A stretch of 64,000 nt of DNA, taken from positions 4,715 through 68,714 of the forward strand of contig JAFGGM010000051.1 in the NCBI GenBank assembly GCA_016930555.1, in the 5' to 3' direction. The position numbers were made by a program, and so were the translations under genes. This DNA comes from Candidatus Bathyarchaeum sp. Lineage in GTDB: Archaea; Thermoproteota; Bathyarchaeia; Bathyarchaeales; Bathyarchaeaceae. The notes beneath the pieces were generated by a model, which worked only from the letters and a program-made list of their open reading frames with translations, had not been told where the DNA came from and ran no database searches. Positions 16,668 to 39,503 of this stretch are shown in pieces (position 1 is the stretch's first letter; each line of letters opens with the position of its first letter).

Positions 16668-17130
16668 TTCTCAGAAACTCTACTAAGCCACCCCTATCAA
16701 CAATCTTCTGCATAAAGGGTGGTAACGGTTTCACCTTAAGAACTAACCCTTTAGTTTTGTCGCGAATCTCGCCAGTTTTGAAGTCTATCTCAACTGCGTC
16801 GCCGTCATCAATCTTCTCAGTATCTTCGCAAACAAAGAGGGGCAATCCAATGTTTATGGCGTTTCTGAAGAATATTCGAGCAAAGGATTTTGCTACTACA
16901 GCGCCTACGCCAGCAGCCTTTATCGCAACAGGAGAATGCTCCCGCGACGAGCCACAGCCAAAGTTGTTTCCCGCAACAATCACATCACCCTCCTTGACTT
17001 GTTTCACAAACTCTGGTCGGTACTCTATGAATGCTATTTCGCTCAGCCGTTTCTTGTCCGTTGTTACGGTGTATCGTCCAGGCGTGATAATGTCAGTATT
17101 TATGTCGTCACCAAACTTCCATGCTCTCAC
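16645..17130 (-). CDS. leuD: 3-isopropylmalate dehydratase small subunit (or homoaconitase small subunit)
   Basis: 161 aa, archaeal-type LeuD/HacB (FGDDINTDIITPGRY..., GNNFGCGSSREH). Confidence 0.85.
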   Translation of the reverse strand: MRAWKFGDDINTDIITPGRYTVTTDKKRLSEIAFIEYRPEFVKQVKEGDVIVAGNNFGCGSSREHSPVAIKAAGVGAVVAKSFARIFFRNAINIGLPLFVCEDTEKIDDGDAVEIDFKTGEIRDKTKGLVLKVKPLPPFMQKIVDRGGLVEFLRSDGYDNV

Positions 17131-18374
17131 ATGTAATCCCTCGGATCAGCAATCTTCCCTGTCAATGCTGACGCGGCAACCGTTGCCGGAGAAGCCAAAA
17201 TAATGTCTGCTTTCGGGTCGCCCATTCTTCCTGTGAAGTTACGGTTCATGCTAGAAACACAAGTCTCTCCCTCACAGAGCACTCCTTCGTGTCTGCCGAT
17301 GCAAGGACCACAACTGGCATTGCAGACTGTTGCTCCTGCTTTAACCAGAGCCTCCAAGTAACCTTCCTCTAGTGCTGCAAAGTAGATGTCCTCTGATGCA
17401 GGGGAGACTATGAGTCTGACGTTTCGAGCAATCTTCTTTCCTTTTAGTATTTTTGTGGCAACCTCGATGTCTTCTAGCCGCCCATTTGTGCATGTTCCCA
17501 GAAAGGCTTGATCTATTTTTCTCCCCTCAACTGCAGAAACAGGTTTCACATTATCTACTGATGCAGGAAGCGCAACCTGAGGCTCAAGTTCTCCAACCTC
17601 TATTTCATACTCGTCCTTGTATGATGCTTCCTTGTCGCTTCTGAAAATCTTTCCAGTTCGTCCGCCAAGAAAATCAAGCGTTTTTTGGTCAGCCTCGATT
17701 ATGCCGTTTTTTCCACCCATCTCAATAGCCATGTTACACAAAGTCAAACGAGAAGAGACCGTTGCGTTATCGACGTAGTCTCCAGTGAACTCGCAGGCTT
17801 TGTAGAGTGCTCCGTCAGCTCCAACATCACCAATAATGCTTAAGATAACGTCCTTAGCATAGACGCCTTTCCGTGTCTGGCCAGTTAGATTAAATTTCAG
17901 GCTTTCAGGAACCTTAAACCAGCATTTTCCCGTAGCCATGGAACCCCCAATGTCAGTTGACCCCAAACCAGTAGTGAAGGCTCCTAAGGCTCCTTCAGTG
18001 CATGTGTGAGAGTCAGCTCCAACAACTACGTCTCCAGGAGAAACAAACTTTTCAACCAAGAGCTGATGACAGACTCCATTTGTGAAGAATCCTGAAAGTT
18101 GTTGGTCAGCAACAAATTTTCTTGATTTCTGGTGTAGGGTTGCTCCTGCCACGGTGGGTGCAGGAAAGAAGTGGTCAAATACAATTATGACTTTGTCTTT
18201 GTTGAAGACTTTGTCAGTGATGCTGTAGAATGCTTCGATTGCCAGAGGGGCTGTGGAGTCGTGTGCCATAACATAGTTTACGTCGGCGATCGCAAAATCT
18301 CCAGCAGCCACTTCATTCTGATGGGACGCATGAGCTAAGATTTTTTCAGTTATTGTAGAAGCCATAAGCCTCAA
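17127..18374 (-). CDS. leuC: 3-isopropylmalate dehydratase large subunit (or homoaconitase large subunit)
   Basis: 415 aa of the aconitase family with cluster-ligand regions (GADSHTCT, GTCTNGR, CGPCIG). It has 4-nt overlaps with both neighbours. Confidence 0.85.
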   Translation of the reverse strand: MRLMASTITEKILAHASHQNEVAAGDFAIADVNYVMAHDSTAPLAIEAFYSITDKVFNKDKVIIVFDHFFPAPTVAGATLHQKSRKFVADQQLSGFFTNGVCHQLLVEKFVSPGDVVVGADSHTCTEGALGAFTTGLGSTDIGGSMATGKCWFKVPESLKFNLTGQTRKGVYAKDVILSIIGDVGADGALYKACEFTGDYVDNATVSSRLTLCNMAIEMGGKNGIIEADQKTLDFLGGRTGKIFRSDKEASYKDEYEIEVGELEPQVALPASVDNVKPVSAVEGRKIDQAFLGTCTNGRLEDIEVATKILKGKKIARNVRLIVSPASEDIYFAALEEGYLEALVKAGATVCNASCGPCIGRHEGVLCEGETCVSSMNRNFTGRMGDPKADIILASPATVAASALTGKIADPRDYM

Positions 18375-19612
18375 CGCTTCTCAGTTTCTGCTATCATTTC
18401 TTTAACTTCATCAGGAGTATAGGAGCTTCGTCTTGCTCCACTGGAATATGCTGCCTTTATTTTCTCAAGAACCTTCTTTGCAGTATCTTCGGAAATGCCG
18501 ATTTTGAGTTCTTTTTCTGCAACATACATGATTCCGTGTCTTCCACTCAGTTCATCTATGTACACTCTTCGTTTCTGCCCTACCAGTCTTGGTGGATAAA
18601 ACTCGTATGTTTGCGGGTTAATGAGAACACCGTGCTGGTGTATGCCTGAGCTGTGAACTGTCACGTTTTCTCCAGTTATTGGCTTGTGAGGAGGCATCTT
18701 TACTCCAGAAAGCTCCTCAACAAGTTTTGACAGAGAATTTAGTTGACTCATCTCAAAGGGGCTAGTGCCGTAGATTATATGTAGTGCAGGAATAAGTTCC
18801 TCTGTTACTGTTATTCCCGCTCTTTCGCCGATGCCATTCACACTTGTTGACACCGTTGAAGCGCCAGCATCTATTGCCGCCAAAGAGTTAGCCAAAGCCA
18901 ATCCGAGGTCGTTATGGCAGTGAACCTCAATGGGTATATCTACGACACTTCCGATTTCTTTCACCAGAAACGCCATACCGTTAGGACCTGTACAGCCCAA
19001 AGTGTCAACAACTCGCGCTCGGTCTGCTCCTGCATCTTCAGCGGTTTTGTAGGCTTTCTTCAGGAACTCCAAGTCGTTTTCTCTGGTTGTATCCTCTGCA
19101 CTGTAAATGACAAACAATCCATAGCTTTCCGCGTAGCTAACCATCTCTTCCAACCGTTCAAGGTATGTTTCTTGGGTCATGCCACCAAACTTGTGTTTGC
19201 GGTGGTAAGGAGATATAGATAGAGATACAACTATGCCGTCAGCACCTACATCCGCAACAGCATCAATATCCTCTTTCTTTGCCCTTGCAAAAGCTGAAAG
19301 CTGAGCGTCAAGGTTCATGTTAAGAATTGATTTAATGCAGTTTCTCTGCTTTTCTGAAGCAGCTGGAAATCCTGCTTCTATCTGCTGTATTCCAACTTCA
19401 TCCAATTTCTTGGCTATTTCCAGCTTGTTTTCTAGGCTAAAGATTACGCCTGGAGTCTGTTCGCCCTCTCGTAGTGTGCTGTCGTGGACAATGTAATTGT
19501 CTAGCTTAGGGGCTTTGAAGTTTACGAAGTTGTAGGGGCTTGGGAGAATTCCCTCTCTTTCCAGTCTTTTCAGTAATTTTTGCCCCTGTTCTTCAAGATA
19601 TTCTTCTTCCAA
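18371..19612 (-). CDS. Homocitrate synthase / isopropylmalate-synthase-family enzyme without the long LeuA regulatory domain
   Basis: 413 aa with HDSTLREGEQTPGV, HCHNDLGLALANSLAA and the HxH region. It is placed next to the Lrp and lysW cluster, consistent with the first step of the alpha-aminoadipate route. Confidence 0.75.
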   Translation of the reverse strand: MEEEYLEEQGQKLLKRLEREGILPSPYNFVNFKAPKLDNYIVHDSTLREGEQTPGVIFSLENKLEIAKKLDEVGIQQIEAGFPAASEKQRNCIKSILNMNLDAQLSAFARAKKEDIDAVADVGADGIVVSLSISPYHRKHKFGGMTQETYLERLEEMVSYAESYGLFVIYSAEDTTRENDLEFLKKAYKTAEDAGADRARVVDTLGCTGPNGMAFLVKEIGSVVDIPIEVHCHNDLGLALANSLAAIDAGASTVSTSVNGIGERAGITVTEELIPALHIIYGTSPFEMSQLNSLSKLVEELSGVKMPPHKPITGENVTVHSSGIHQHGVLINPQTYEFYPPRLVGQKRRVYIDELSGRHGIMYVAEKELKIGISEDTAKKVLEKIKAAYSSGARRSSYTPDEVKEMIAETEKR

Positions 19613-19777
19613 TCTGGTAAGCCGTCCTTTTCACACTATTTTGCCGAATCAAGTTTCCGAAGAATACAAAACGCACAAATATATATACTTTATGTAAAAT
19701 TGTCGCCGTTAGAATACGAAAAGCTTACCCCCAATTCCGAAACCGTAACTACTTATTAATCAATCAAGCTTGACGTT

Positions 19778-20206
19778 TTACCAGCTGCGCAATATGATCA
19801 TAGTGTTCGTGTCTGAGACTCCCCCCAGGCGCCGTATCTTCTCGAGGCACTCGTTAACCTCTGTGATGTTAAAGCCCGATATTATGGCTGCAATGTCATA
19901 TTCGCCAGTAATCTCATATACTGTTTCAACATTCGGAAGCTGCTTCAGTGCCTTGGAAACGTCAGAAGTAGGTAAAGATGGATTGACTGAAAGCAAAGCG
20001 ATTGCCTCTGCTCCTTCTGCAAGTCCAACCTTGACTGTGAAGCGTCGTATTGCTCCATCATCAACAAGGGCTTTGATTCTTTTCCGTACTGCGCCTTCAG
20101 ACAAGTCAATTCTTTTTCCTATGTTGCTATAGGTGGCTCTGCCATCATGTTTCAGAATTTCGATTATTGCCTTGTCAATGTCATCCATGTTCTTCACTTC
20201 TGACAT
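19778..20206 (-). CDS. Lrp/AsnC-family transcriptional regulator (LysM-like by position)
   Basis: MSEVKNMDDIDKAIIEILKHDGRATYSNIGKRIDLSEGAVRKRIKALVDDGAI... gives an HTH plus RAM domain. The tracked ORF (to 20383) was trimmed to the ATG at 20204-20206 because the extension has no family similarity. Confidence 0.85.
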   Translation of the reverse strand: MSEVKNMDDIDKAIIEILKHDGRATYSNIGKRIDLSEGAVRKRIKALVDDGAIRRFTVKVGLAEGAEAIALLSVNPSLPTSDVSKALKQLPNVETVYEITGEYDIAAIISGFNITEVNECLEKIRRLGGVSDTNTMIILRSW

Positions 20207-20226
20207 AATATCTATACGGAAAAATT

Positions 20227-20268
20227 TAACGATTTCTGAACAAAAGACGGTAAGTTTGTAACGATTTC
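20227..20268. promoter_or_regulatory. Exact 10-nt direct repeat TAACGATTTC x2 in the lrp/lysW divergent intergenic region
   Basis: TAACGATTTC occurs at 20227-20236 and 20259-20268, a 32-bp register. A related CGGATTTCG lies near 20339. Confidence 0.35.
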
Positions 20269-20396
20269 CGCATGAGGGTTCACCTTTTCTTACTAGAAAG
20301 CGGAATAACAGTTTGGACATCACAAGTAACCATCCTACGGATTTCGTATAATAAGTTGGAAAACGTGCAAAACTGCATGTCATTAATCCGAAATTC

Positions 20397-20405
20397 TTAT
20401 AAATA
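20397..20405 (+). promoter_or_regulatory. TATA-like box upstream of lysW
   Basis: TTATAAATA lies about 46 nt upstream of the TTG start at 20451. An AGAGGTG Shine-Dalgarno-like element is at 20438-20444. Confidence 0.4.
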
Positions 20406-20450
20406 GCAACATTTTCTATAATGGCTCACTTAACCAAAGAGGTGTAGGTA

Positions 20451-20627
20451 TTGAAGAAAGCCAAATGCCCCGATTGCGACGCGGAAATAGAAGTCCAAGA
20501 CGATGTCATGAAAGGCGAGATTCTCAGCTGCCCCAGTTGCGGTCTTGAACTGGAAGTGACATGTAACAAAGGAGACTCCGTGGAGCTAAAAGAATTAGGG
20601 ATTGAAGGAGAAGACTGGGGAGAATAG
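20451..20627 (+). CDS. lysW: Alpha-aminoadipate/glutamate carrier protein LysW
   Basis: This ORF is not in the track because it is 58 aa. The translation is (M)KKAKCPDCDAEIEVQDDVMKGEILSCPSCGLELEVTCNKGDSVELKELGIEGEDWGE. It has a CxxC...CxxC zinc ribbon and the diagnostic C-terminal EDWGE tail. A stop lies 2 codons upstream, and an SD-like element precedes the start. Confidence 0.85.
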   Translation: MKKAKCPDCDAEIEVQDDVMKGEILSCPSCGLELEVTCNKGDSVELKELGIEGEDWGE

Positions 20628-20736
20628 GTTCCCCACAAATTTTCTTTTTACAGTTTCACATACGAAACAAAAAAGAAACAGACCGATAAACACTTATGGA
20701 TTATAGACTGTTTGAAGCGAGGAAGTAAAAACAGAG

Positions 20737-21921
20737 ATGAGCATTGGAATTTTATTTGAGAGCTCCGAAACAGACGAAAAAGGCATTAACATGACTGCTG
20801 AGCAGATGGGAATAGACCTAGTTTACATCCCCTTCCGCAAAGTTGCAGTTCGCCTAGACGAACATGGCTACAGCATTCGAACCAAAGCAAAGGACTATAC
20901 TAAAGTCATCAAAGACATCAAAGTAGTGCTAAACCGGGCACAAAGCAAGAACCGAAGACTCTTCGCAGCTAATGTTCTGGAAGCCTTCGGCAAACATGTG
21001 ATAAACCCACAGTGCGTAGAATATGCATGCTTCAGCAAACTGAGAACCTTACTCCACTTCTGGCAAGCAGGACTCCCAACTCCTGAGACAGTTTATGTTC
21101 CGGTTGATTCCACCGAAAAAACCTTGGATGGAAGGGAAATCCATAACGAAGGAGACATAGCAGACCTGTTTTTGATGGAACTGAACCATCAGAATATTGT
21201 AGTCAAACCTGACGCTGGAACTCATGGAAAGGGCGTTCAGTTAGCCAAAGAACGCAACGAGTTGTTGCCAATTCTGAGGGACATTCAGCCTTCAATAATC
21301 AATCCTGTTGGGGTCCTCGCTCAGAAGCTCGTCCAGAAATGGTTCTACGACCTCAGAATAATAGTTACTAAAGAGGATAGAAAGGCGCCATACTGCTACC
21401 CCACAGCCCTAGCTCGGGCAGGATTCAAAGATTTCAGGACAAACACATTCCTGGGCAACATGGTAGTTGGCGTGAATTTGCCAAGTCACATCAGAGAGGT
21501 AGCAGCCAAATGCGGCAAAGCTATGGGAGGAGACAGCAAAGCCTACCTTTTAGCTTTCGATGCAATGGTTGGCGTGAACGGAAATAAGGATGTTGAAGAT
21601 GAGCATCTGATGGAAGAATTTGAAAAACTTGAGCCCTCCTTTGATGCTGTAAAGAAGGTGAAAGGAGATAAGACCAAAAGAACGTCCTTCCCTGCATGGA
21701 ACAGGAAGCTGGAGGCGGCTTTTGAAAACTACAAGAGCCAAGAACCCTATCTGTACATAAAGGATGTTATTGAAGACAGTATGGAAAAGAACAAGCATAA
21801 TATAGTGTTCCATGAGGCCAATGCTTGCCCCGAATTCTGGGAACAAACCCGTTTAGCTGCTGGGATAAACATAGCAGAAGCACTGCTAAAGGGAGCTCAG
21901 AGTATAATAAATAACGAATAA
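20737..21921 (+). CDS. lysX: RimK/LysX-type ATP-grasp ligase, atypically long (putative LysW ligase)
   Basis: The N-terminus (IGILFESSETDEKGINMTAEQMGIDLVYIPFRKV) and RAQSKNRRLFAANVLEAFGKHVINP...KLRTLLHFWQAGLPTPET follow the LysX/RimK pattern. It is 394 aa against about 280 aa for characterised LysX. It occupies the position between lysW and lysY. Confidence 0.6.
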   Translation: MSIGILFESSETDEKGINMTAEQMGIDLVYIPFRKVAVRLDEHGYSIRTKAKDYTKVIKDIKVVLNRAQSKNRRLFAANVLEAFGKHVINPQCVEYACFSKLRTLLHFWQAGLPTPETVYVPVDSTEKTLDGREIHNEGDIADLFLMELNHQNIVVKPDAGTHGKGVQLAKERNELLPILRDIQPSIINPVGVLAQKLVQKWFYDLRIIVTKEDRKAPYCYPTALARAGFKDFRTNTFLGNMVVGVNLPSHIREVAAKCGKAMGGDSKAYLLAFDAMVGVNGNKDVEDEHLMEEFEKLEPSFDAVKKVKGDKTKRTSFPAWNRKLEAAFENYKSQEPYLYIKDVIEDSMEKNKHNIVFHEANACPEFWEQTRLAAGINIAEALLKGAQSIINNE

Positions 21922-21936
21922 AGGAGAAATAAAAAA

Positions 21937-22989
21937 ATGCGAGTTGGAGTAATTGGTGGATCAGGATACGTAGGCTCAGAACTATTACGACTGCTACTTC
22001 CCCACCCAAAAATAGAATTAACAATAGTGACTTCCCGTCAAAACGCAGGCGAATTCGTTTTCACGGTTCATCCTAACCTCAGAGGAGCCACTCAACTGAA
22101 ATTCACGCCCCCCAACATCTCCCAAGTAACAGAGAATTGCGACTTGGTGTTCGCTGCGATGCCCCACGGCAAATCATTGGAACTAGTTCCACAACTGCTT
22201 GAAACGGGAGTAAAGGTCATCGACATGAGCGCAGATTACCGCCTCAATAACCCAGTTGATTACGACAAATGGTACAGATGGAAACACACTCATCCAGAAC
22301 TGCTAGAAGAAGCAGTTTACGGTTGCCCTGAGCTTCACCGCCAAGAAATCAAAGACGCCAAGCTAGTAGCGTGTCCAGGATGCATGTCCACAGCCACGAT
22401 TCTGGGATTGGCGCCTCTCGTGAAGGAAGGCGTAATCGAAAAGAACAGGATAGTAGCTGACGTTAAGATCGGCTCCTCGGGTGCAGGACAAAAGCCCACT
22501 GTTACATCTCATCATCCTGAAAGGGCAGGTGGCGTGCGACCATACAAGGTAGCAGACCACAGGCATGTAGCAGAAGTTGAACAGGAACTCAATCTGTTAA
22601 CAGAAGAAAAAGTTACAGTAGCTTTTACACCCCATGCAGTAAACATGATTCGGGGCATTCTTTCAACAATTCACGCTTACCTCAAAACGCCAGTGACAGA
22701 CAAAAACGTGTGGAAGTTCTATCGCTCTATGTATCAAAATGAATATTTCATACGTTTTGTCAAGTTCAAGAAGGGACCTTACCAGTTGCCAAACCCCAAA
22801 ATTACGATGGGAACAAACTATGTTGACATCGGCTTCGAAGTAGACCCGCGCACACGAAGAATTATCGTCTTCTCAGCCATCGACAACCTCATGAGGGGCG
22901 CATCTGGTCAAGGAGTGCAATGCATGAACCTTATGATTGGCATAAACGAAAAAACTGGCATAGACCAACAAGGTTTCCATCCGATGTGA
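21937..22989 (+). CDS. lysY: [LysW]-aminoadipyl-phosphate / N-acetyl-gamma-glutamyl-phosphate reductase
   Basis: 350 aa of the ArgC family (MRVGVIGGSGYVGSELLRLL, the active-site region ACPGCMSTA). Confidence 0.9.
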   Translation: MRVGVIGGSGYVGSELLRLLLPHPKIELTIVTSRQNAGEFVFTVHPNLRGATQLKFTPPNISQVTENCDLVFAAMPHGKSLELVPQLLETGVKVIDMSADYRLNNPVDYDKWYRWKHTHPELLEEAVYGCPELHRQEIKDAKLVACPGCMSTATILGLAPLVKEGVIEKNRIVADVKIGSSGAGQKPTVTSHHPERAGGVRPYKVADHRHVAEVEQELNLLTEEKVTVAFTPHAVNMIRGILSTIHAYLKTPVTDKNVWKFYRSMYQNEYFIRFVKFKKGPYQLPNPKITMGTNYVDIGFEVDPRTRRIIVFSAIDNLMRGASGQGVQCMNLMIGINEKTGIDQQGFHPM

Positions 22990-22995
22990 TAAAAA

Positions 22996-23802
22996 ATGTT
23001 GATCGTAGTTAAGGTTGGCGGAAGCATTCTTGAAGAGGTGCCAGCTGAACTGGTAACCGACATAAAGAACGTACTTTCTGAGCACGAACTCGTATTGGTT
23101 CATGGAGGAGGAAAAGGCGTCACAGAAATAGCCTCTAAGCTTGGCAAAGAGCAACAGTTCGTTTTTTCGCCAACAGGTTTTCGCAGCCGATACACAGACA
23201 AAGAGACTATGGAAATCTTCACGATGGTGATGGCAGGCAAAATCAACAAAAAAATAGTTATAGCCCTAATGAAACAAAAGATACCAATCGTTGGGCTTTC
23301 AGGCTTAGATGGATTGCTTGTGCAAGCAACAAGAAAGAAGCGCATAATCATAGTTGATGAGCGGGGCAGAAAGCGCGTGATTGACGGCGGCTACACAGGA
23401 AAGGTTAGCCAAATCAACGTTTCCTTGCTTCAACTCCTACTCGAGAATGGTTTTGTGCCATTAGTCTCTCCGATTGCAGCAAGTGAAGAGCAGGAACCCC
23501 TTAATGTTGACGCTGACCGCACAGCAGCCAATATCGCTGGAGCCTTGAAAGCAGATATGCTGGTTCTGTTGACTGACGTTGAAGGACTGAAGTTGAACGA
23601 TAAGGTGGTCTCGAAACTCTCTATCGATGATGTTGAGGACAAGCTGAAGAAGATTGGGGGCGGCATGATAACCAAAGTTTACGCTGCCCATGAAGCATTA
23701 AATCAGGGCGTTAGCGAGGTGGTAATCTGTTCTGGCGTCCGAAAGAATCCGATTTCTAACGCTTTGAAGCATGAAGGTGGTACGGTGATAAGCCGTGAAT
23801 GA
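22996..23802 (+). CDS. lysZ: [LysW]-aminoadipate kinase / acetylglutamate kinase family
   Basis: 268 aa amino-acid kinase fold (VVKVGGS..., VLVHGGG, NVDADRTAANIA). Confidence 0.9.
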   Translation: MLIVVKVGGSILEEVPAELVTDIKNVLSEHELVLVHGGGKGVTEIASKLGKEQQFVFSPTGFRSRYTDKETMEIFTMVMAGKINKKIVIALMKQKIPIVGLSGLDGLLVQATRKKRIIIVDERGRKRVIDGGYTGKVSQINVSLLQLLLENGFVPLVSPIAASEEQEPLNVDADRTAANIAGALKADMLVLLTDVEGLKLNDKVVSKLSIDDVEDKLKKIGGGMITKVYAAHEALNQGVSEVVICSGVRKNPISNALKHEGGTVISRE

Positions 23803-24979
23803 AAAAAAAGTAATCGATATCGAAGATAAAATTATGGCAAACACCTTCGCCAAAAGAAACCTTGTGTTAACAAGGGGCAAAGGAGCCACAGTTTGGGACA
23901 TCAACGGAAACGAATACATTGATTGCACAGGCAGCTATGGAGTTGCTGTTGTTGGTCACTGTCACCCAAAAGTTGTGAAAGCAGTTCAAAAGCAAGTGGA
24001 AAGTCTTATTGCCTGTCACGCCTCCTTCTACAACGACATACGTTCAGAGCTTCTCCAAAAATTAATTAACTTAGCTCCAAAGGGACTCGACAAAGTTTTT
24101 CTTTCTAGCAGCGGCGCCGAGGCAGTTGAGTGCGCCATAAAATTGGCTAGAAAAGCTTCAGGCAAAACCGAAATAATCGCCATGATAGGAGCCTTTCACG
24201 GCAAAACCATGGGCGCTCTTTCTGCAACATGGAAAAAGAAGTATCGGGCGCCTTTCATGCCCTTGGTTCCAGGATTCAAGCATGTTCCTGCAAACAATCT
24301 TGAAAAGATAAGGGAAGTAATCACTGACAACACTGCCGCAGTAGTTGTTGAACCAGTCAGGGGAGAGGGCGGAATCCTTGTCAATTCAGACGACTTTCTT
24401 CCGGGACTACGAGAACTCTGTGACGAAAAAGGCGTGTTACTAATTTTCGATGAAGTACAAACGGGTTTTGGTCGCACAGGCAAAGTTTTCGCATGTGAAC
24501 ACTGGAACGTAGTTCCCGATATCATGTGTCTTGCCAAGTCTGTTGCTGGCGGAATTCCCATGGGCGCAACCTTTGCCAAAGAGGAAATTATGTCTGCCTT
24601 CAACAAGGGAGAGCACTCAAGCACATTCAGCGGTAACCCATTAGTTTGTGCTGCGGCTTCTGCAGCCATAGATGTGCTTGTTGAAGAGAAACTTCCAGAA
24701 AGGGCAGCAACTCTTGGGCAATACTTCAAGAGCAAGCTGGAAACCTTAGCTGAGAAATACAAGATTGTCAGAGAGGTCCGAGGTTTGGGTCTTATGATTG
24801 GGATGGAGATGCGATTTGACGTTTATAATATACTGCTTGGATGCATGGAGAGGGGGGTTCTTGTTTTGGATGCTGGAAGAAACGTTGTCCGGTTTCTGCC
24901 GCCCTTAGTCATCGAGGAACAGCAGATCGACAGAGTCATTGAAGTACTGGATGAAGTATTGGCAGGGGAGAACAAATGA
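23795..24979 (+). CDS. lysJ: [LysW]-aminoadipate semialdehyde / acetylornithine aminotransferase
   Basis: 394 aa class III PLP aminotransferase (LIFDEVQTGFGRTGK, with the PLP lysine in the LAKSVAGG region). Confidence 0.9.
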   Translation: MNEKKVIDIEDKIMANTFAKRNLVLTRGKGATVWDINGNEYIDCTGSYGVAVVGHCHPKVVKAVQKQVESLIACHASFYNDIRSELLQKLINLAPKGLDKVFLSSSGAEAVECAIKLARKASGKTEIIAMIGAFHGKTMGALSATWKKKYRAPFMPLVPGFKHVPANNLEKIREVITDNTAAVVVEPVRGEGGILVNSDDFLPGLRELCDEKGVLLIFDEVQTGFGRTGKVFACEHWNVVPDIMCLAKSVAGGIPMGATFAKEEIMSAFNKGEHSSTFSGNPLVCAAASAAIDVLVEEKLPERAATLGQYFKSKLETLAEKYKIVREVRGLGLMIGMEMRFDVYNILLGCMERGVLVLDAGRNVVRFLPPLVIEEQQIDRVIEVLDEVLAGENK

Positions 24980-26118
24980 GTAACGACTACGCCGTTGACC
25001 TGCTTACACGCATGACAAAAATTTACAGCCCCTCAGGCAACGAAGAGAAGATTTCCTTGTTCTTGGCTGACGAAATGACGAAACTGGGTTTCATAGTTCA
25101 CAGGGATGAAGTAGGAAACGTTATCGGCGAAATAGGTGAAGGCTCTCCAGTTGTTCTTTTGTGTGGGCACATGGACACTGTTGAAGGGAAGATTCCTGTC
25201 AGGGTTGAGGACGGACAACTGTATGGCAGAGGCTCCGTGGACGCAAAAGGTCCGTTAGCCGCCATGATTGTAGCTGCCTCCACCTTTGTCAAGAACGGTT
25301 TTCCAGGAAAGATTCTGGTTGTTGGCGTCGTAGATGAGGAAAAGGGGGGCACAGGAATCCAGCATTTTGTTGAAGAAGGCATTCAGCCAGATTACGCCAT
25401 TTTCGGTGAGCCAAGCGGTTTAGAAAAGATTGTCTTCGGCTACAAGGGCATCGTAACTGTGAAGGTATCTGTTAAGACACCCTCAGGTCATTCTGCTGCA
25501 CCATGGCTCTTCGATAATGCAATTGAGAAAGCTATGGAGTTTTGGAGACAGATTAACAAGCTTCATTTGCGGGAAGAGAAACTGAAGAGCCGTTTCTACT
25601 CAATTACATCTTGCTTAACGGGAATAAAGGGCGGAAACCATTCTGCCTCTTTTATTCCCTCAGAGTGCGAGATTATTGTTCAGTTAAGAATTCCACCTCA
25701 GCTAACACCAGATGTCGTGTTTGAGGAAGTAAAGCGGAAGATTGACCGCTACAAAGCAACTAACCCTAAGGTTCAAGTATCGGTGGAGATGGTGGATGTG
25801 GCTAAAGCCTTCGAAGCTGACCGCAGGTCCGTTATTGTCAGGGCTTTGGCTTGGGGCATCAGAAAGACCACACTGAATTATGCATCTTTTTCGCGGAAAA
25901 CGGGTACAGGAGACATGAATGTTCTTGGTAATGCCCTGAAGATTCCGGTGGTTACGTATGGACCCGGAGACTCTCGGCTAGACCACACACCCAACGAACA
26001 CATAGACATCCAAGAATACCTAGAAAGCATCGAAGTTCTGAAGAAGGCTCTCCATAAGCTGCCTGACTTCGTTGAGAAACAGGAAAAAAGACAACAAAGA
26101 GACTGCAACAATAATTAG
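24976..26118 (+). CDS. lysK: [LysW]-lysine hydrolase / acetylornithine deacetylase (M20 family)
   Basis: 380 aa with M20 motifs (LLCGHMDTV, GRGSVDAKG, DEEKGG). It has a 4-nt overlap with lysJ. Confidence 0.85.
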   Translation: MSNDYAVDLLTRMTKIYSPSGNEEKISLFLADEMTKLGFIVHRDEVGNVIGEIGEGSPVVLLCGHMDTVEGKIPVRVEDGQLYGRGSVDAKGPLAAMIVAASTFVKNGFPGKILVVGVVDEEKGGTGIQHFVEEGIQPDYAIFGEPSGLEKIVFGYKGIVTVKVSVKTPSGHSAAPWLFDNAIEKAMEFWRQINKLHLREEKLKSRFYSITSCLTGIKGGNHSASFIPSECEIIVQLRIPPQLTPDVVFEEVKRKIDRYKATNPKVQVSVEMVDVAKAFEADRRSVIVRALAWGIRKTTLNYASFSRKTGTGDMNVLGNALKIPVVTYGPGDSRLDHTPNEHIDIQEYLESIEVLKKALHKLPDFVEKQEKRQQRDCNNN

Positions 26119-27393: not shown

Positions 27394-27469
27394 TAAATAA
27401 ACATATGATAGAAAACAGAAAAGAAAAAATGGAAAAGGGGAGACTGCCAGCTTTTGCAGCCTAACTGGA

Positions 27470-28675
27470 TTATTGGTAGCTTTGCCACTTGCTTTCCAGT
27501 GCTGGGTCCTGAATAGTTTTCATCAAGTAGTCAGCAAATTCTGCTCCAGTAGCGCCATCTGATCTTCCTGTTGTTATCACCTTTTTCTCGTACTGTCCAC
27601 AGACGTCAAGAGCCATCTCAAGTTTCTTTGCTTCAGCAGCAAATCCGATGTGTTTCAGGAGCATGACTGTTGCTCTCAGGATGCTGGCGGGGTCAGCGTA
27701 TTCGGCTCTTCCTTCCTCAACCATTCTTGGAGCTGAGCCATGGATAGCCTCAAACATTGCGTATCTTTTGCCGATGTTTGCGCTTCCAGCTGTGCCGACT
27801 CCTCCTTGGAATTCAGCCGCTTCGTCAGTAATTATGTCTCCATAAAGGTTTGGCAATACTACAACCTTGAATTGGGTTCGTCGCTTCGGGTCCACAAGCT
27901 TTGCAGTCATGATGTCAACAAACCAGTCATCCCATTCAACACCAGGATAAAGTTTGGCCACCTGCTCTGCCACGCTGAGGAATTTTCCGTCAGTTGTTTT
28001 CACTACATTCGCTTTGGTTACAACAGTTACCTTGTTGATGTTGTTTTTCTTGGCGTAATCAAAGGCCATCTCGGCAATTCTTTCGGAACCCTGTGTGGTT
28101 GTTACTTTGAAGTCAACAGCAAGATCGTCAGTGACATTCACTCCCTTGCCCCCAAGTACGTATGCGCCTTCTGTGTTCTCCCTGAAGAATATCCAATCGA
28201 TTCCTTCTTCAGGAACCTTTACAGGTCTCACGTTCGCAAACAGGTCAAGAATCCGCCGCATAGCAACGTTTGCACTCTCGATGTTAGGCCATTTGTCGCC
28301 CTTCTTCGGAGTGTATGTTGGACCCTTGAGTAGAACATGGCACGTTTTTATTTCTGCTAGAACGTCGTCAGGTATCGTCTTCATGACCTTGGCTCTGTTC
28401 TCGATGGTCAAGCCCTCAATGACTTTCATTTGGACTTTCCCATTGGCTACCTCTTTTTTCAGCAGAAATTCTAGAACCCTCTGGGCTTCCTTAGTGATGA
28501 ATGGACCAATACCGTCTCCGCCAACAATTCCGATTACTATCGGCTTCAGTTTGGCGTAGTCCAGCCAGTTTTCTGCCTGTTTCATTTGTTCGACTCTTTC
28601 AAGCTGTTCTTCAAGCAGCTTACCAAAATGTTCCTTTGCCGCTTTAATTTCTTTATTCATTTCCATTTCCTCCAA
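27470..28675 (-). CDS. icd: Isocitrate dehydrogenase (isocitrate/isopropylmalate dehydrogenase family)
   Basis: 401 aa with GGDGIGPFITKEA, NLYGDIITDEAAEFQGGVGTAGSANIG and HGSAPRMVEEGRAEYADP. It is adjacent to aclA. It has a charged helical N-terminal stretch of about 45 aa, and an alternative start is possible. Confidence 0.8.
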   Translation of the reverse strand: MEEMEMNKEIKAAKEHFGKLLEEQLERVEQMKQAENWLDYAKLKPIVIGIVGGDGIGPFITKEAQRVLEFLLKKEVANGKVQMKVIEGLTIENRAKVMKTIPDDVLAEIKTCHVLLKGPTYTPKKGDKWPNIESANVAMRRILDLFANVRPVKVPEEGIDWIFFRENTEGAYVLGGKGVNVTDDLAVDFKVTTTQGSERIAEMAFDYAKKNNINKVTVVTKANVVKTTDGKFLSVAEQVAKLYPGVEWDDWFVDIMTAKLVDPKRRTQFKVVVLPNLYGDIITDEAAEFQGGVGTAGSANIGKRYAMFEAIHGSAPRMVEEGRAEYADPASILRATVMLLKHIGFAAEAKKLEMALDVCGQYEKKVITTGRSDGATGAEFADYLMKTIQDPALESKWQSYQ

Positions 28676-28680
28676 TTTTT

Positions 28681-30531
28681 TTATTTTATTTCTTCCTTTT
28701 TAGGAGAAGCATAAAGAATGTCATTCCATGGATGTCTGTACAGGTTTTCCTTAAGACGCTTTTGATCTAGGATGTGCCCCATGAATCCGATGCTGCGCCC
28801 AAGCACGAAGAGCCCATTTAGGGCTCCAGTTTCGATGATGTCACTGATTTCCTGTTTTGAGAAACCTAAACTGTTAAGCATATCAACGAAAAGAATTCCT
28901 ACACAGCCATCAACATTCAATATTAGGTTGTCCCTTTTTGCTGTGGTCACTTTCTCAACAGCTAGGGCGTAATCGAGGTAATCGGTTTTCGGAAAATTTT
29001 CTCTAGCATACTTTTTGAGAAGCTCCACACGCTTGTCTGGGTTAATCACTGACTTGACACGATGACCAATTCCAGGAATCAGTATGTCCATGGCCTTCAT
29101 ATCATCAACCATCTCTTTGGGCTCCTTGGCTTCATCATGGAACTTCTTGAACCAGTACGCTGCTCCGTCAATGGCGCCTCCGAAACGTGGACCAATCGTC
29201 AACAAACCGCTAACCAACGAGGATATGAGATCCTTTCCGGCTCTCGCAGAGATTATGGCATTGTGAGCGCCTGACACTGCAGGACCATGATCAGCCACTA
29301 TCTGCAAAACTAGCTCAATGAAGCCTGTTCCCCATTTCGGGAGTTCTTTCTTGAACCACAGAAGCCCGATAACTCCGCCGATTCCGTAGCCATTTTCTAC
29401 AACTTCAGTTAGAGGCACACCCGCATACATGGGTTGGTCTCCTCGCTCGTCAGTGATTGTACTGACAAAATGCGTTGGTATCCTCACCATTCCTTCAGTT
29501 ATAGCAGTGCTTAAGTCCATGGGAGTTTTCTTGGGCTCCCTATCTGGTTTAGGCTTAACTTTTCCTTCTTTCACCAGCTTGTCAAAAGTTTCTTTGATTT
29601 TTTTGCCCAAATCATCGAAGGAATCTGGGACGACTGCTCCTGCTTCTTTCAAAGCTTTATTTTTTGCGTCAGCTGTTTCCAAGTCAGTTCTTGCCTTTGC
29701 TCCCGCATGACCAAACTGTACTCCAGCTGAGAACATTTTGGAGCATGTTCCGATGCACCATGCAACAAGTGACTTAGTGATTTTTCCAGTTTTCAGGGCG
29801 TTTACGATGTCATATTCATCTCTGCCTCCGACTTCGCCGAGGAGAACAATCATGGCTGCATCTGGGTCCTGTTGGAATCTCATTACGTGGTCTATGAAGG
29901 TACTACCTGGATAGAGGTCTCCGCCGATGGCTATTCCTTCGTAGACGCCGTCGCTGTTTCTGGAAACGATGTTATTCAGTTCGTTAAGCAGTCCACCTGA
30001 CTTCGAAACAAAGGCAACGCTTCCTGGGCGATGCAACCGAGACGCTATTATGTTGTCGATCATGCCACCAGTGTTTCCTATCTTGAAGGCTCCGCCCTTG
30101 ATTGCGCCAACTGTTGCGGGACCGATTATCCATTTTCCCTTCTGTCTTGCAATAGCAGCAAGTTCTCTTGTGTATCTTTCAGGGATTCCTTCGGCAATGA
30201 TTGCGACTGTGCGGATGCTATCGATTTCGAGGGCTTCTCTTGTTCGGGGGTAAGCTGACCTGAAGGATGCGAAGTTGACCATCACATCAGCTTGAGGATG
30301 CTTTTCTGCTGCTTCCTTGATGCTTGTGTATATTGGAAGAATGATTTCTTCAGGTCCCCAGAAGCATTTGTGGTATCCGTCTCTTGTCGGGTCAACAATT
30401 GCTACGATGCTGGGGTTTTTTCTTTCGCATGCATAGTCGAAGTCAAGCATGCGTTGGATAGCCCTTTGCTGGTATCCAAAGATGATAGCTTGGGTGTTCT
30501 TATCAAACAGTTTATAGTTGCTCATTTTCAC
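28681..30531 (-). CDS. aclA: ATP-citrate lyase alpha (large) subunit
   Basis: 616 aa. A CoA-binding/ligase portion carries the phosphohistidine loop [10 protein letters not shown], fused to a citrate-synthase-like C-terminal domain. It has a 4-nt overlap with aclB. Confidence 0.9.
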
Positions 30532-31811
30532 GCACCTGCATTTCCTTTAAGTGCCATCGAAACTATCGAGGTCATGTGGGCTTCTGGTCCAAACACTTCA
30601 ATTGGAACGCCTAAGATTTTGCCGAGGTCTTTCATGTTTTTCAGTCCTTCTTGATAGTTTGGTCCGCCTCTGCGAACGTAAATTCTGACCTTGTTGTCGA
30701 TGAGTTGCTGCTTGTATTCTTTTAGTGCTTTTATTATGCCCGTGAAGGTCTTGGCTACGTCAGTGAAGTTTGCGATGCCGCCTCCGATAATCAGGATTTT
30801 TCCTTTCGGATTCTTTTCTCGTGTCATGAGGTCAAGTATTGTTTTTGTGTACTGGTATGTCTCGTCAGTGGAGGGGTTGCCGCTGTATTCTCCGTAATTG
30901 GCTAACTCATCTTTGAAGCCTAAGTCAAAAACGGTGTCTGTGTAAACGACGCTGGCGCCGCCGCCCGCAACTAATGTCCACACTCTGCCGCTTGGGTTAA
31001 TTACAGTTAGTTTCAGGGAGGCGCCACTTTTTTCATCCAAATCCTTCACGAATTTTTCTTCTTTGGTAAGTCTTCTTCCGAAGGGTGCTGGAAACTCGAT
31101 GTTACCCCATTTGTTGCCGCAAACGAACTGGGCTGTGTCGTCGAGACGAGCAACAGTGTCTAGAGGTATGAAGGCTTCTTTGGTCATTGCTATGGGATTA
31201 ATTTCGAGATACGCATAACCAAAGTCTACGTAAAACTTGAACAAGCCTTTAATGAACTCGGCGACCATTGCTTTTTCTTCTTCAGGAACTTCTTTGGGCA
31301 GTTTTTCGGCTATTTTGATGTTGTTGATGCTAGAAAGAATTGGAACTTGTATGGTTACAACAGTGTCCCAAACGGACTCTATGTCTACTCCTCCGTGCGC
31401 CGAGAAGTAGATAGCGTCGCCTTCCCTGTTGGATGTTATGGCAACATAGTATTCCTTGTTTTTATCATGGGGAATAAAGGGTTCAATAAGAAAATGTGTA
31501 AGCTTGTCTGTTACTTTTCCTATCGTAACGTCCTTGTTCATCCGTTTATTCAACCACTTCTTTGCTTCATCAAATGTGGAATTAAGAAGTATGAGGTTGT
31601 TTTTTCCTCTTTTTCCAATCAGTTGATCAGGCTTGACAACCAATTTCTCTTGTTTCAGCCAAGGATTCTGTTTGGCAAGCTCATTCATGTCTGTTTTTGG
31701 GTCAACCAAAACTATTTTTCCGTCGTACTTTGCAAGGTTTGGTAAATATTCTGTCCAATAGTTTGCCATCATCTTTTTTCCATGAAATTCACGAATTCCT
31801 CTTTGAGCCAA
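30528..31811 (-). CDS. aclB: ATP-citrate lyase beta (small) subunit, ATP-grasp
   Basis: 427 aa. The N-terminus [15 protein letters not shown]...[14 protein letters not shown] and the succinyl-CoA-synthetase-beta-like architecture are typical of AclB. Confidence 0.9.
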
Positions 31812-31843
31812 TTTTTTGTCTCCTTCAATTAATTTTCAGTCTG

Positions 31844-33778
31844 TCACTTGTTTTTGATGTAAGAAAGCATTCCACCTGCAAGGAGAATATTCTTCTGTCG
31901 TTCGGACAGTTCATAGTTTACTTCAAACTGTTTTCCTTTTGTAAGATTTTTCACAATCAGCGGCTTGTTCTCTGACAGCACTTTTCTGATATCTGGAATC
32001 TCCAGTTCGTCTCCAGAGTCTATCTGGTCATAATCTGATTCTGTTTTGAAGGTTAAGGGGATGATTCCGAAGTTGATCAGGTTTGCTGAGTGAATTCTCT
32101 CAAAGGATTTGGCAATAACCGCCTTTACGCCTAGAAACATTGGACAAAGGGCTGCATGCTCCCGTGAAGAGCCTTGACCGTAGCTTAGTCCGCCTACGAT
32201 AATGTTGTGTTTTCCGCTGTCCCTGATTTCTGACGCTCGCTTGTAGAAGGTGTCATCCACTATCTCAAACACGAACTCAGAATACTTGGGCACATTAGAC
32301 CTGTACTTCATTCTGCTTCCTGCGGGGATGATGTGGTCGGTGGTGATTTTGTCGCCCACCTTGATGGTGACGACCCCAGAGATGTCCGCAGACATAGGCG
32401 GATTAGATGGTGGATCTCCAATGTTTGGACCACGGTATATTTTAACCGCGTCTGGAGTTTCTGAAGGCAACAATATCATGCTGTCGTCGATATAGAATTT
32501 TGCAGGCATCTCCACTACGGGATAGTCCATTCCAAGGTCTCGTGGGTCAATCATTTTGCCTGTTAGAAGGGACGCAGCGGCTGTTTCAGGGCTTGTTAAG
32601 TACAGGTTTGCAGTCTTTGTTCCAGAACGTCCAAAGAAGTTTCTGTTGGAGGTGCGTATTGACACTGCCTCTGTTTGAGGCGACTGGCTGTTTCCGATGC
32701 AGAATCCGCAGACTGGCTCTGTGATTCTGGCGCCAGTGGAATAAAGGTCTGCCAGGGCGCCTTCTTTTGCTAGGTTCTCGATTACCTGTTTTGAGCCTGG
32801 AGAAATAACAAAGCTGACTGAGGGGTGAACCTTTTTGCCCTTCAGGATTTTTGCTACAGTCATTAGGTCCTTGTAAGAAGAGTTTGTGCAGCTTCCTATA
32901 CACACTTGATTAACTTTCATCCCGCTGAGTTCTTTCACTGTTTTGATGTTGCCAGGGCTGTGGGGGTAGGCTGCTAGCGGAACTATTTCGCTCAAGTCGA
33001 TGTCGACCACCCAGTCGTATTCGGCGTCGGGGTCGGCTTTGACTTCAGTCCAGTCTCGTTCTCTGCCCTGAGCCTTCAGGAACTGTTTTGTGGTTTCGTC
33101 AGATGGAAACACGGAAGTTGTGACTCCACATTCTGCCCCCATGTTCGTGATGGTTGCCCGCTCAGGAACAGAAAGGGTTTTGGCTCCCTCGCCTCCATAC
33201 TCAAAGATGGCACCGACGTTGCCTTTTGTGGTGAAAATCTCCAAAACCTTCAGAACCACATCTTTTGCGGAGACCCAAGGTTTCAGTTTTCCCTTCAAAT
33301 TTATTTTTGTGACTTTTGGACACGTAAGATAGAAGGGTTCGCCTCCCATAGCAACAGCGATGTCTAATCCTCCAGCTCCAATGGCAATCATGCCCAGTCC
33401 GCCAGCGGTTGGAGTGTGACTGTCAGAGCCTAAAAGCGTCTTTCCAGGTTTTCCGAACCGTTCAAGATGAACTTGATGGCAGATGCCGTTTCCTGCCCTG
33501 GACAACAGGATGCCATACTTGGCTGCGACTGATTGCAGATAACGATGGTCGTCTGCGTTCTCGAAGCCCACTTGGATTGTGTTGTGGTCTATGTAGCTTA
33601 CAGAAAGCTCGGTTTTGACTTTTGACAGCCCCATTGCCTCAAACTGGAGGTAGGCCATGGTTCCGGTTGCATCCTGCGTCAAAGTCTGGTCAATTTTTAT
33701 GGCAATTTCTTTGCCGGGTTCAAAGTTTCCTTCTACTAGGTGCTTTTCGATTATCTTCTGGGTTATACTTTTACCCAT
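31844..33778 (-). CDS. acn: Aconitate hydratase (short, about 640-aa fused-domain type)
   Basis: 644 aa with aconitase-family cluster motifs (GSDSHT, IGSCTNSSYKDL, the CGFCIG region). The swivel domain is fused at the C-terminus. Confidence 0.85.
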   Translation of the reverse strand: MGKSITQKIIEKHLVEGNFEPGKEIAIKIDQTLTQDATGTMAYLQFEAMGLSKVKTELSVSYIDHNTIQVGFENADDHRYLQSVAAKYGILLSRAGNGICHQVHLERFGKPGKTLLGSDSHTPTAGGLGMIAIGAGGLDIAVAMGGEPFYLTCPKVTKINLKGKLKPWVSAKDVVLKVLEIFTTKGNVGAIFEYGGEGAKTLSVPERATITNMGAECGVTTSVFPSDETTKQFLKAQGRERDWTEVKADPDAEYDWVVDIDLSEIVPLAAYPHSPGNIKTVKELSGMKVNQVCIGSCTNSSYKDLMTVAKILKGKKVHPSVSFVISPGSKQVIENLAKEGALADLYSTGARITEPVCGFCIGNSQSPQTEAVSIRTSNRNFFGRSGTKTANLYLTSPETAAASLLTGKMIDPRDLGMDYPVVEMPAKFYIDDSMILLPSETPDAVKIYRGPNIGDPPSNPPMSADISGVVTIKVGDKITTDHIIPAGSRMKYRSNVPKYSEFVFEIVDDTFYKRASEIRDSGKHNIIVGGLSYGQGSSREHAALCPMFLGVKAVIAKSFERIHSANLINFGIIPLTFKTESDYDQIDSGDELEIPDIRKVLSENKPLIVKNLTKGKQFEVNYELSERQKNILLAGGMLSYIKNK

Positions 33779-34013
33779 GCATTTCCTCTCCTTTCCAACA
33801 TTTTCGGGTGATTTTACGTGAATCCACGCAAGCCTAAAAACCTCTTATCTTCATCTTATTTCTAATATAAAACATTAACGAATACCCACATCTAGGGCAC
33901 TTTTTTTGGGTTCAACCGTCTGTGTTAGAAAAATAGAAGCTTAGAACAGCAGTTAGACGCCGAAAGAATGAAGTAAAGTGTTTTATTTTGGGCTTAACGT
34001 CAGATAGAATGGT

Positions 34014-39499: not shown

Positions 39500-39503
39500 C
39501 TTT

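Follow-up and report, generated by a model that had tools for sequence, protein, structure and literature searches.

A conserved aconitase, ATP-citrate lyase and isocitrate dehydrogenase operon in Bathyarchaeia and its possible role in 2-oxoglutarate synthesis

Many metagenome surveys score the genes aclA/aclB of ATP-citrate lyase (ACL) as evidence for carbon fixation by the reductive form of the tricarboxylic acid cycle (rTCA). The operon described here, acn-aclB-aclA-icd, combines these genes with those of an aconitase and an isocitrate dehydrogenase (IDH) and is located on a 64,000-nucleotide stretch of DNA from Candidatus Bathyarchaeum sp. (contig JAFGGM010000051.1 of assembly GCA_016930555.1), the whole of which is called the window in the following. 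We see roughly an even chance that this operon represents an oxidative 'horseshoe' branch, mainly anabolic, which makes 2-oxoglutarate with ACL as the citrate-forming, ATP-yielding enzyme. Precedents for single aspects of such a pathway come from several anaerobes. Moller et al. are said to have reported in 1987 that the ACL of Desulfobacter postgatei runs in the ATP-yielding direction during acetate oxidation, and Verschueren et al. reportedly described the heteromeric ACL of Methanothrix soehngenii (Methanosaeta concilii) in 2019 (PDB 6HXI/6ZNW). Methanothrix is an acetate-activating methanogen and makes acetyl-CoA directly from acetate. For ANME-1 and ANME-2c, a partial oxidative TCA branch was described, in which ACL was proposed to work in the ATP-producing direction and 2-oxoglutarate to serve biosynthesis (Chadwick et al. 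2022, PMC9012536). Finally, the operon citA-citB-citC of C. acetobutylicum (CA_C0970-0972) encodes a Re-citrate synthase, an aconitase and an NADH-IDH, and its function as an oxidative TCA branch was proven biochemically (PMC4669385).

Bathyarchaeia are among the most abundant archaea of anoxic sediments. ACL homologs in Bathyarchaeota have already been noted (survey preprint), and 35 metagenome-assembled genomes (MAGs) of Bathyarchaeia from hot springs were found to lack both ACL and citrate synthase (PMC8407382). Bathyarchaeum tardum, the cultivated representative of Bathy-8, features a complete archaeal Wood-Ljungdahl pathway and showed no growth on H2/CO2 (PMC10477458). The presence of ACL in Bathyarchaeota, a solved archaeal structure of the clade in question and the role proposed for ANME are already known. 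No paper was found in the searched literature on this operon in Bathyarchaeia, on its link to the clostridial citABC type or on the four-fold replacement of its IDH.

Enzymes and layout of the operon

The assignment of AclA and AclB as a true heteromeric ATP-citrate lyase (EC 2.3.3.8) follows from their domains, their alignment to solved structures and their catalytic residues. AclB matches the Pfam families Citrate_synth_N ATP-grasp (PF24948; 291.9 bits, cutoff 83) and Citrate_bind (PF16114; 297.3 bits), aligns over its full length with 6HXI_A (554 bits) and scores 475 bits against the N-terminal half of human ACLY and 183 bits against the Chlorobium chain; its identity to Methanothrix AclB amounts to 57.3%. 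In AclA, the Pfam domains CoA_binding, Ligase_CoA and Citrate_synt (residues 405-599) were detected, with bit scores of 845 against 6HXI_B (full length), 816 against residues 490-1098 of human ACLY and 408 against Chlorobium 6HXJ_B, and with computed identities of 61.3% to the Methanothrix soehngenii enzyme and 59.5% to human ACLY. Judged by these scores, the window ACL belongs to the ACL clade closest to human ACLY, far from Chlorobium ACL, and the operon adds a well-sampled archaeal group to this clade. A residue-by-residue alignment revealed that all mapped catalytic residues of human ACLY are conserved in AclA. His275 of the GHAGA loop (VQFGHAGAK), to which the first-pass annotation of the window had already pointed, aligns with the human phosphohistidine His760 and Glu114 with Glu599, and in the lyase domain His415, His490, Arg491 and Asp541 align with His900, His975, Arg976 and Asp1026, Asp541 being the residue changed to Ala in 6ZNW. 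These four residues presumably hold the catalytic roles described for their counterparts in the ACLY literature. Because the lyase domain is fused within the AclA chain, which also carries the CoA-ligase part, a split citryl-CoA synthetase and lyase is ruled out; the first-pass annotation had reached the same view from the fusion, and the retained lyase residues bear it out.

Among the homologs, a group of ACL-like proteins of 1004-1040 aa (P0392, P0397, P0451, P0452, P0458 and others) spans 96-100% of Methanothrix AclA with identities of 52-57%. Proteins of this size would match a fusion of AclB and AclA in one chain, but the Pfam domains listed for them are of the AclA type only; some sit on contigs of 50-100 kb.

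The acn product is assigned as an aconitate hydratase by its cluster ligands, its catalytic Ser and a curated cutoff. It reaches 955.6 bits with NCBIfam PRK07229 'aconitate hydratase' (cutoff 612), and among solved structures pig mitochondrial aconitase comes nearest (321 bits); in alignment with it, the 4Fe-4S cluster-ligand and catalytic motifs IGSCTNSSY, CGFCIG and GSSREH are conserved. The icd product, in turn, is assigned as an isocitrate dehydrogenase of an N-extended subfamily. It matches Pfam Iso_dh (PF00180) with 219 bits and reaches no NCBIfam equivalog cutoff, the best model being PRK09222 (NF006673) with 259.9 bits against 509. In the PDB, it matches best to three chains that were deposited as isocitrate dehydrogenase (6m3s and 6ltf; 6lky as 'NAD-dependent'), all aligning from query residue 48; by the NCBIfam and PDB searches, the subfamily is without a curated model and without a solved structure covering its N-terminus. 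Residues S129, N131 and R135 of the S-x-N-x-x-x-R motif (ESANVAMRR) are invariant across an alignment of 43 sequences, and we take the Ser-x-Asn motif as a sign of isocitrate specificity, comparable to S113/N115 of E. coli. An NADP specificity, suggested by the Arg in the HGSAPRM loop (Asp in 6m3s and 6ltf), was dropped, since the clostridial CitC of such operons is NADH-dependent. The identities given in the first-pass annotation, i.e., a short fused aconitase, AclB, AclA and IDH, are thus in agreement with the Pfam, NCBIfam and PDB matches.

The real start of icd is most likely the third Met, the ATG at 28660, because a Shine-Dalgarno sequence (GGAGG) stands 8 nt upstream of it, the upstream part of the longest ORF is interrupted in locus L004 by an in-frame stop at codon 4, and most public gene calls give 396 aa. 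The charged N-terminal stretch that the first-pass annotation had put at about 45 aa is therefore shorter, with about 40 aa, but it is real, strongly conserved and predicted to be helical. The sequence EIxxAKEHFGKLLEEQLERVERMKKAEDWIDY is conserved across 14 loci, and the extension is also found in relatives at 41-59% identity (P0122, P0124, P0125, P0129, P0135 and P0140), while dehydrogenases of greater distance start only near residue 47, which indicates that the N-terminal helix is a trait of the subfamily. AlphaFold with 43 sequences (mean pLDDT 70.1, pTM 0.72) predicted one long helix for residues 2-28, at a pLDDT of only about 60; with 15 close homologs only, the mean pLDDT was 41.8. If ACL is the citrate-forming enzyme, this helix may have a role specific to the three-enzyme segment, e.g., in assembly or regulation.

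Two relatives of Icd deviate from this arrangement. P0122 (1272 aa) contains two tandem N-extended IDH-like domains with the helical motif before each; its N-terminal part of about 430 aa shows a hydrophobic leader and received no assignment, and several catalytic-loop residues look altered. P0134 (L035/L036, 1994-8751) is more distant (45% identity), is without the full N-terminal helix and belongs to a bacterial cluster, probably for tricarboxylate catabolism, in which a LysR regulator, two genes of the aconitase family (656 and 759 aa) and two transporters of the CitMHS type are encoded. P0134, being part of a cluster of another kind, was not used as evidence.

The four tightly packed ORFs are arranged as the first-pass annotation had described them, co-directionally on the minus strand (Table 1), and the spacing of their junctions is operon-like. 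Between acn and aclB lies a gap of 32 nt with an AGGAG-type Shine-Dalgarno sequence ahead of the TTG start of aclB, from which the N-terminus MAQRGIRE, the same as in Methanothrix, is translated. The start of aclA overlaps the stop of aclB (GTGA), and aclA and icd are separated by 5-20 nt. A GGAGAGG Shine-Dalgarno sequence was read ahead of the acn ATG, and a putative TATA-like element, TTTATATT, was recognized by eye at 33864-33871, about 90 nt upstream of acn. The genes acn, aclB, aclA and icd form one operon. Just downstream of icd, two ORFs without a Pfam match follow on the same strand (26950-27393 and 26119-26685, both minus), the first of which, with 147 aa, resembles a multi-pass membrane protein, and the second of which, with 188 aa, is hydrophobic in its C-terminal half. 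With the thresholds applied, both are kept only in the nearest relative, L001, with 81-84% identity.

Conservation, enzyme exchange and likeness to clostridial operons

The archaeal origin assumed in the first-pass annotation is well founded. The closest loci in species-representative genomes are those of Bathyarchaeia, with the AclA of L001 being 95% identical, the Icd sequence is identical to MBN1784897.1 of 'Candidatus Bathyarchaeum sp.', and the window also encodes RadA, Cdc6/Orc1, DHQS-II and Fae-Hps. The arrangement of the four genes is no coincidence. The order acn-aclB-aclA-icd recurs in 10 loci at 74-95% protein identity, nine of them from the window clade and one from Chloroflexota (L014), and four further loci (14 in total) show the order cut by a contig end or an assembly truncation. 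The operon is conserved in at least 13 loci of Bathyarchaeia.

Outside the window clade of Bathyarchaeia and Chloroflexota L014, which share the IDH type of the window, acn-aclBA clusters contain other IDH proteins. In Bathyarchaeota RBG_16_48_13 (L016), a eukaryote-type NADP-IDH (PRK08299, 658 bits against a cutoff of 335) is inserted between acn and aclB, and Anaerolineales (L015) and Acidimicrobiia (L022, L023) have tblastn homologs of it upstream of aclB. The cluster of Caldisericales L019 includes a prokaryotic NADP-IDH (TIGR00183, 584 against 567), and in Thermoplasmatota (L018, L024) a monomeric IDH (PF03971, >1200 bits) follows aclA, with a tblastn homolog in L026. The occurrence of four non-orthologous IDH types in these clusters indicates that selection acts on the trio of ACL, aconitase and IDH as a unit. 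Together with the conserved synteny, this strengthens the view of the first-pass annotation that the genes constitute a dedicated module between citrate and 2-oxoglutarate.

A transfer from bacteria, also considered in that annotation, was addressed for AclA by a neighbour-joining tree without support values, which places the window clade beside Chloroflexota and Thermoplasmatota and not beside Methanothrix, and the other Bathyarchaeon (L016) beside Methanothrix. This pattern points to lateral transfer between anaerobes from both domains. At 9327-12664 of L006, on the 5.1-Mb chromosome CP070673.1 of 'Deltaproteobacteria bacterium bin73', a fragment of about 3.3 kb comprises aclB and icd in truncated form and aclA in full, the last with 85.5% identity to its counterpart in the window. 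With 41-43%, its GC content is below that of the flanks (45-51%), where FAD/Fe-S oxidoreductases of bacterial type are encoded; the fragment has the look of a chimera of the assembly or of a leftover from a recent transfer from an archaeon to a bacterium.

A parallel in gene content was encountered in Firmicutes, where three lineages (L031, the Anaerovoracaceae L037/L038, and L039/L040) combine, in this order, genes for an HMGL-like protein (459-463 aa), an aconitase (640-647 aa) and an IDH (384-398 aa). The acn and icd products of the window are 58% and 54% identical to the aconitase and IDH of L031, respectively. An adjacent pair of aconitase and N-extended IDH also exists in L033, and in one organism with 59% GC the two genes overlap. 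The similarity of the Firmicutes HMGL-like protein to NifV and isopropylmalate synthase is weak (about 150 bits, far below their cutoffs), presumably as expected for a Re-citrate synthase, and from this weak similarity and the architecture we infer that the gene encodes such an enzyme. The likeness to the clostridial operon is drawn from these Firmicutes loci and not from C. acetobutylicum sequences.

A Re-citrate-synthase-like gene was not found in the window, as the two HMGL proteins encoded there share only 27-29% identity with that of L031 and are part of leucine and lysine sets. The 413-aa protein of these was considered as Re-citrate synthase and rejected, with 29% identity to the Firmicutes candidate and a position at the head of the homocitrate-synthase/hacA/hacB/dehydrogenase set beside lysW-K. 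In the window, the citrate-synthase slot of the clostridial operon is occupied by ACL, which thus appears to fill the role of a citrate synthase. The operon is not a member of the citA-citB-citC family, but it is proposed to work like one. The operon is a clear example of replacement by non-orthologous enzymes, affecting the citrate-forming enzyme as well as the IDH within a single small operon. In a broader and more tentative version of this proposal, which we would rate somewhat below even chances, the 'eukaryote-like' ACL would be the physiological, ATP-conserving citrate synthase of anaerobes of the Wood-Ljungdahl type (Bathyarchaeia, ANME-1/2c, Methanothrix, Anaerolineae), would have displaced the Re-citrate synthase in an ancestral operon of the citA-citB-citC type and would have spread laterally, thereby gaining four IDH types.

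Direction of the pathway and alternative readings

In the oxidative branch proposed here, ACL would form citrate, CoA and ATP from acetyl-CoA, oxaloacetate, ADP and Pi, aconitase would convert citrate to isocitrate, and IDH would decarboxylate isocitrate to 2-oxoglutarate, which would be used for glutamate and for the neighbouring LysW/aminoadipate pathway of lysine (possibly arginine). The acetyl-CoA would originate from the Wood-Ljungdahl pathway, as in B. tardum, and by using ACL in place of the Re-citrate synthase of the homologous citA-citB-citC, an organism starved of energy would spare one ATP for each citrate. The reactions encoded by the operon are precisely the three that link acetyl-CoA and oxaloacetate to 2-oxoglutarate, with no other enzyme of the cycle among its products. 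This reading is favoured because of the exchange of IDH, the clostridial homology, the anabolic context and the precedents of ANME, Desulfobacter and Methanothrix. The citrate-forming direction of ACL, held most likely here, does not appear among the roles envisaged in the first-pass annotation.

The context was evaluated with Pfam or NCBIfam for 57 ORFs of the window, including all of at least 200 aa; four of these had no match, and about 10 short ORFs were left out. The window is an amino-acid biosynthesis island, and the context of the operon is anabolic. Genes for ilvD, leuA, ilvB/N and ilvC are followed by the homocitrate-synthase-like/hacA/hacB/dehydrogenase set, an Lrp/AsnC regulator, lysW-K and the ACL operon, beyond which pheA, tyrA, an aminotransferase, chorismate mutase, the complete archaeal shikimate pathway and then asd, aspartate kinase and SHMT are located. 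LysW, the LysX-like protein, LysY, Z, J and K and the homocitrate-synthase/homoaconitase/dehydrogenase set lie within 12 kb, which substantiates the connection to an adjacent lysine pathway suggested in the first-pass annotation. Neither 2-oxoglutarate:ferredoxin oxidoreductase (OGOR), pyruvate:ferredoxin oxidoreductase (POR), fumarate reductase, succinyl-CoA synthetase or fumarase nor malate dehydrogenase or citrate synthase was detected among the 57 annotated ORFs, and the first five of these do not adjoin the operon in the Bathyarchaeia loci examined.

Related loci show comparable neighbours. Lysine or aromatic amino-acid genes adjoin the operon in L001, L008, L021 and L027, with lysX-K directly upstream of acn and co-directional in L027, a homocitrate-synthase-like gene directly after icd in L008 and pheA after icd in L021. 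An AMP-forming acetyl-CoA synthetase (ACS) adjoins it in L012, L007 and Thermoplasmatota L024, an acetyl-CoA synthetase of the ADP-forming type (ACD) together with CofE in L004 and malate dehydrogenase in L009, and succinyl-CoA-synthetase-like genes are near it in L018. These neighbours fall into two groups, those that provide acetyl-CoA or oxaloacetate and those that use up 2-oxoglutarate or glutamate.

Several points nevertheless weigh against an oxidative branch. ACL, aconitase and IDH are all reversible, so that the direction is not readable from the sequence, and we infer both the direction of flux and the absence of another citrate synthase from the genome; a Si- or Re-citrate synthase or a full set for the reductive branch may be encoded elsewhere. 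The Re-citrate synthase of the Firmicutes operons is itself deduced from architecture and weak similarity. Amino-acid genes are neighbours at only 4 loci besides the window (from at most three genomes, L021 and L027 belonging to one MAG), out of about 9-10 Bathyarchaeia loci with usable flanks. Moreover, generic korA/B/D-like 2-oxoacid:ferredoxin oxidoreductases are listed in the supplement on B. tardum, Bathy-6 genomes were reported with homologs of all TCA enzymes (PMC11697101), and Thermoplasmatota MAGs, not necessarily with the operon or the ACL type of the Thermoplasmatota acn-aclBA-IDH loci considered here, were reported with a complete rTCA gene set (PMC9802188).

These reports also count in favour of a complete rTCA cycle fixing CO2, one of the roles put forward in the first-pass annotation, in which ACL would cleave citrate, aconitase and IDH would work reductively and OGOR would be encoded elsewhere in the genome. 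ACL is the classical signature enzyme of this cycle and 2-oxoacid:ferredoxin oxidoreductases are common in Bathyarchaeia, but no other rTCA-specific gene was found among the annotated ORFs of the window or adjoining the operon in the examined Bathyarchaeia loci, and the genus already has the Wood-Ljungdahl pathway, with B. tardum failing to grow on H2/CO2. The malate dehydrogenase of L009 and the succinyl-CoA-synthetase-like genes of L018 would suit a cycle, as would the Bathy-6 and Thermoplasmatota genomes; the pair of aconitase and IDH, however, is common to the oxidative-branch operon of clostridia, and the context is one of amino-acid biosynthesis. In an ACL-keyed survey of 52,515 MAGs, the new rTCA carriers among archaea were limited to two MAGs of Thermoplasmatota, and Bathyarchaeia were named only under another pathway (PMC9802188), evidence which is indirect given MAG incompleteness and similarity thresholds. 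Altogether, we regard the complete cycle as unlikely.

A reductive half-pathway without a full cycle would lead from 2-oxoglutarate, stemming e.g. from glutamate or peptide fermentation, via isocitrate and citrate to acetyl-CoA and oxaloacetate, the last step being catalyzed by ACL. As with the eukaryotic cytosolic ACLY, the acetyl-CoA could serve lipids or ATP and the oxaloacetate gluconeogenesis. A supply of acetyl-CoA and oxaloacetate was listed as an alternative in the first-pass annotation. Bathyarchaeia are thought to degrade proteins and peptides, and the window ACL is about 60% identical to human ACLY, which runs in the cleavage direction. Such a route would yet cost one ATP and one NAD(P)H per citrate where the Wood-Ljungdahl pathway already yields acetyl-CoA, and its neighbours are biosynthetic genes, the products of which consume 2-oxoglutarate, with no glutamate-catabolic genes adjacent. 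The ACD beside the operon in L004 would fit a conversion of acetyl-CoA to acetate and ATP, but the ACS beside it in three loci makes acetyl-CoA and is a better fit to a role that consumes it. This route therefore appears improbable as well. Little probability is likewise given to a bidirectional near-equilibrium segment of ACL, aconitase and IDH, the direction of which would be set by the supply of acetyl-CoA, 2-oxoglutarate and reductant without any single role: the ACL reaction is near equilibrium and the other two are reversible, the operon occurs in very different lifestyles (Bathyarchaeia, Thermoplasmatota, Chloroflexota, Acidimicrobiia and Caldisericales), both ACS and ACD are among its neighbours and nothing in the sequence opposes it, but it is less specific than the other readings and leaves the recurrent linkage to lysine and aromatic genes and the oxidative clostridial homology unexplained.

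Should ACL act as the citrate-forming step of biosynthesis, as the oxidative-branch reading holds, surveys based on aclAB would overcount rTCA autotrophy, and aclAB alone would be an unreliable rTCA marker in sediment metagenomes. For energy-limited anaerobes, the gain of one ATP per citrate would be of weight at the thermodynamic limit.

Some further features of the window deserve mention. The LysX-like ATP-grasp protein of the lysine cluster (20737-21921, plus strand) is unusually long with 394 aa and divergent; its Pfam matches are weak (RimK 35.9 bits, LysX_preATP_grasp 26.8 bits), and no NCBIfam match was obtained at E<=1e-30. The archaeal-type aromatic cluster at 34014-43789 is complete, with DeoC-family ADH synthase, DHQS-II, type I dehydroquinase, shikimate dehydrogenase, GHMP-type shikimate kinase, EPSP synthase, chorismate synthase, chorismate mutase, aminotransferase, prephenate dehydrogenase and prephenate dehydratase. 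The cumulative GC skew has its minimum near 46-48 kb, RadA is encoded at 54323-55273 and Cdc6/Orc1 at 57265-58449, and a replication origin may be nearby (46000-58500). A Fae-Hps fusion is located at 48346-49794, and a 455-aa protein (62607-63974, minus strand) shows a weak match to Ribophorin_I (38 bits, cutoff 25), a family normally of the eukaryotic oligosaccharyltransferase complex. Searches for tRNA and Rfam families gave no match in the window.

Table 1. Coordinates of the operon, of its putative signals and of the adjacent lysine cluster in the window
Feature	Position	Strand	Description
acn	33778..31844	-	644 aa; single-chain short aconitase; first gene of the operon; Pfam Aconitase and Aconitase_C
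aclB	31811..30528	-	427 aa; ATP-citrate lyase beta subunit: ATP-grasp and citrate-binding domain
aclA	30531..28681	-	616 aa; ATP-citrate lyase alpha subunit: citryl-CoA lyase domain fused in one chain with the CoA-binding and phosphohistidine domains
icd	28660..27470 (likely); 28675..27470 (longest ORF)	-	396 aa (likely), 401 aa (longest); isocitrate dehydrogenase, Pfam Iso_dh
acn/pheA 5' intergenic region	33779..34013	-	shared with divergent pheA; putative promoter, sequence read by eye
Putative archaeal terminator / operon end	27411..27436	-	oligo-T tracts TTTT, TTTTTT, TTTT, TTTT, 35-60 nt past icd stop; read by eye
LysW/aminoadipate cluster	15663..26118	both	complete; 2-oxoglutarate-consuming; context, outside the operon; Pfam and NCBIfam
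Homocitrate-synthase-like, hacA, hacB, dehydrogenase	19612..15663	-	Pfam and NCBIfam
lysW	20451-20627	+	58 aa; two CxxC motifs, C-terminal EDWGE
lysX-like, lysY, lysZ, lysJ, lysK	20737-26118	+	Pfam and NCBIfam

Comparison with described systems

The ACL of the rTCA cycle in Chlorobium, Nitrospira and Campylobacterota is of the same family, domain structure and chemistry as that of the window, but distant from it by bit score. The Methanothrix and window enzymes are both much closer to human ACLY than to Chlorobium ACL and share the two-subunit AclB/AclA architecture, the GHAGA loop and the catalytic Asp. The loci themselves differ: in Methanothrix (L041/L042, 6736-11241, on a 3.6-Mb contig), aclB-aclA is followed by a 419-aa large subunit of the aconitase family (split type) and a PHP-domain protein, with neither an IDH nor a fused aconitase adjacent, whereas the window has a fused aconitase of 644 aa ahead of aclB and an IDH behind aclA.

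Desulfobacter postgatei provides a precedent from a strict anaerobe for a citrate-forming, ATP-yielding ACL, the likeness being physiological and not one of sequence. Its ACL works within a full oxidative cycle that serves energy metabolism, in contrast to the three-step biosynthetic branch proposed for the window. ANME-1 and ANME-2c are proposed to use the same three enzymes, ACL, aconitase and IDH, and are likewise anaerobic archaea of the Wood-Ljungdahl type. They belong to another phylum, the likeness holds at the level of the enzyme set, and the ANME proposal, too, was drawn from genomes. The clostridial citA-citB-citC covers the same three consecutive reactions as the window operon, and the PRK07229 short-type aconitase and the N-extended IDH are common to the window and the Firmicutes operons of that architecture. 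The difference lies in the citrate-forming enzyme, which in the window would be encoded by aclB-aclA between acn and icd and not by an upstream gene of the HMGL family.

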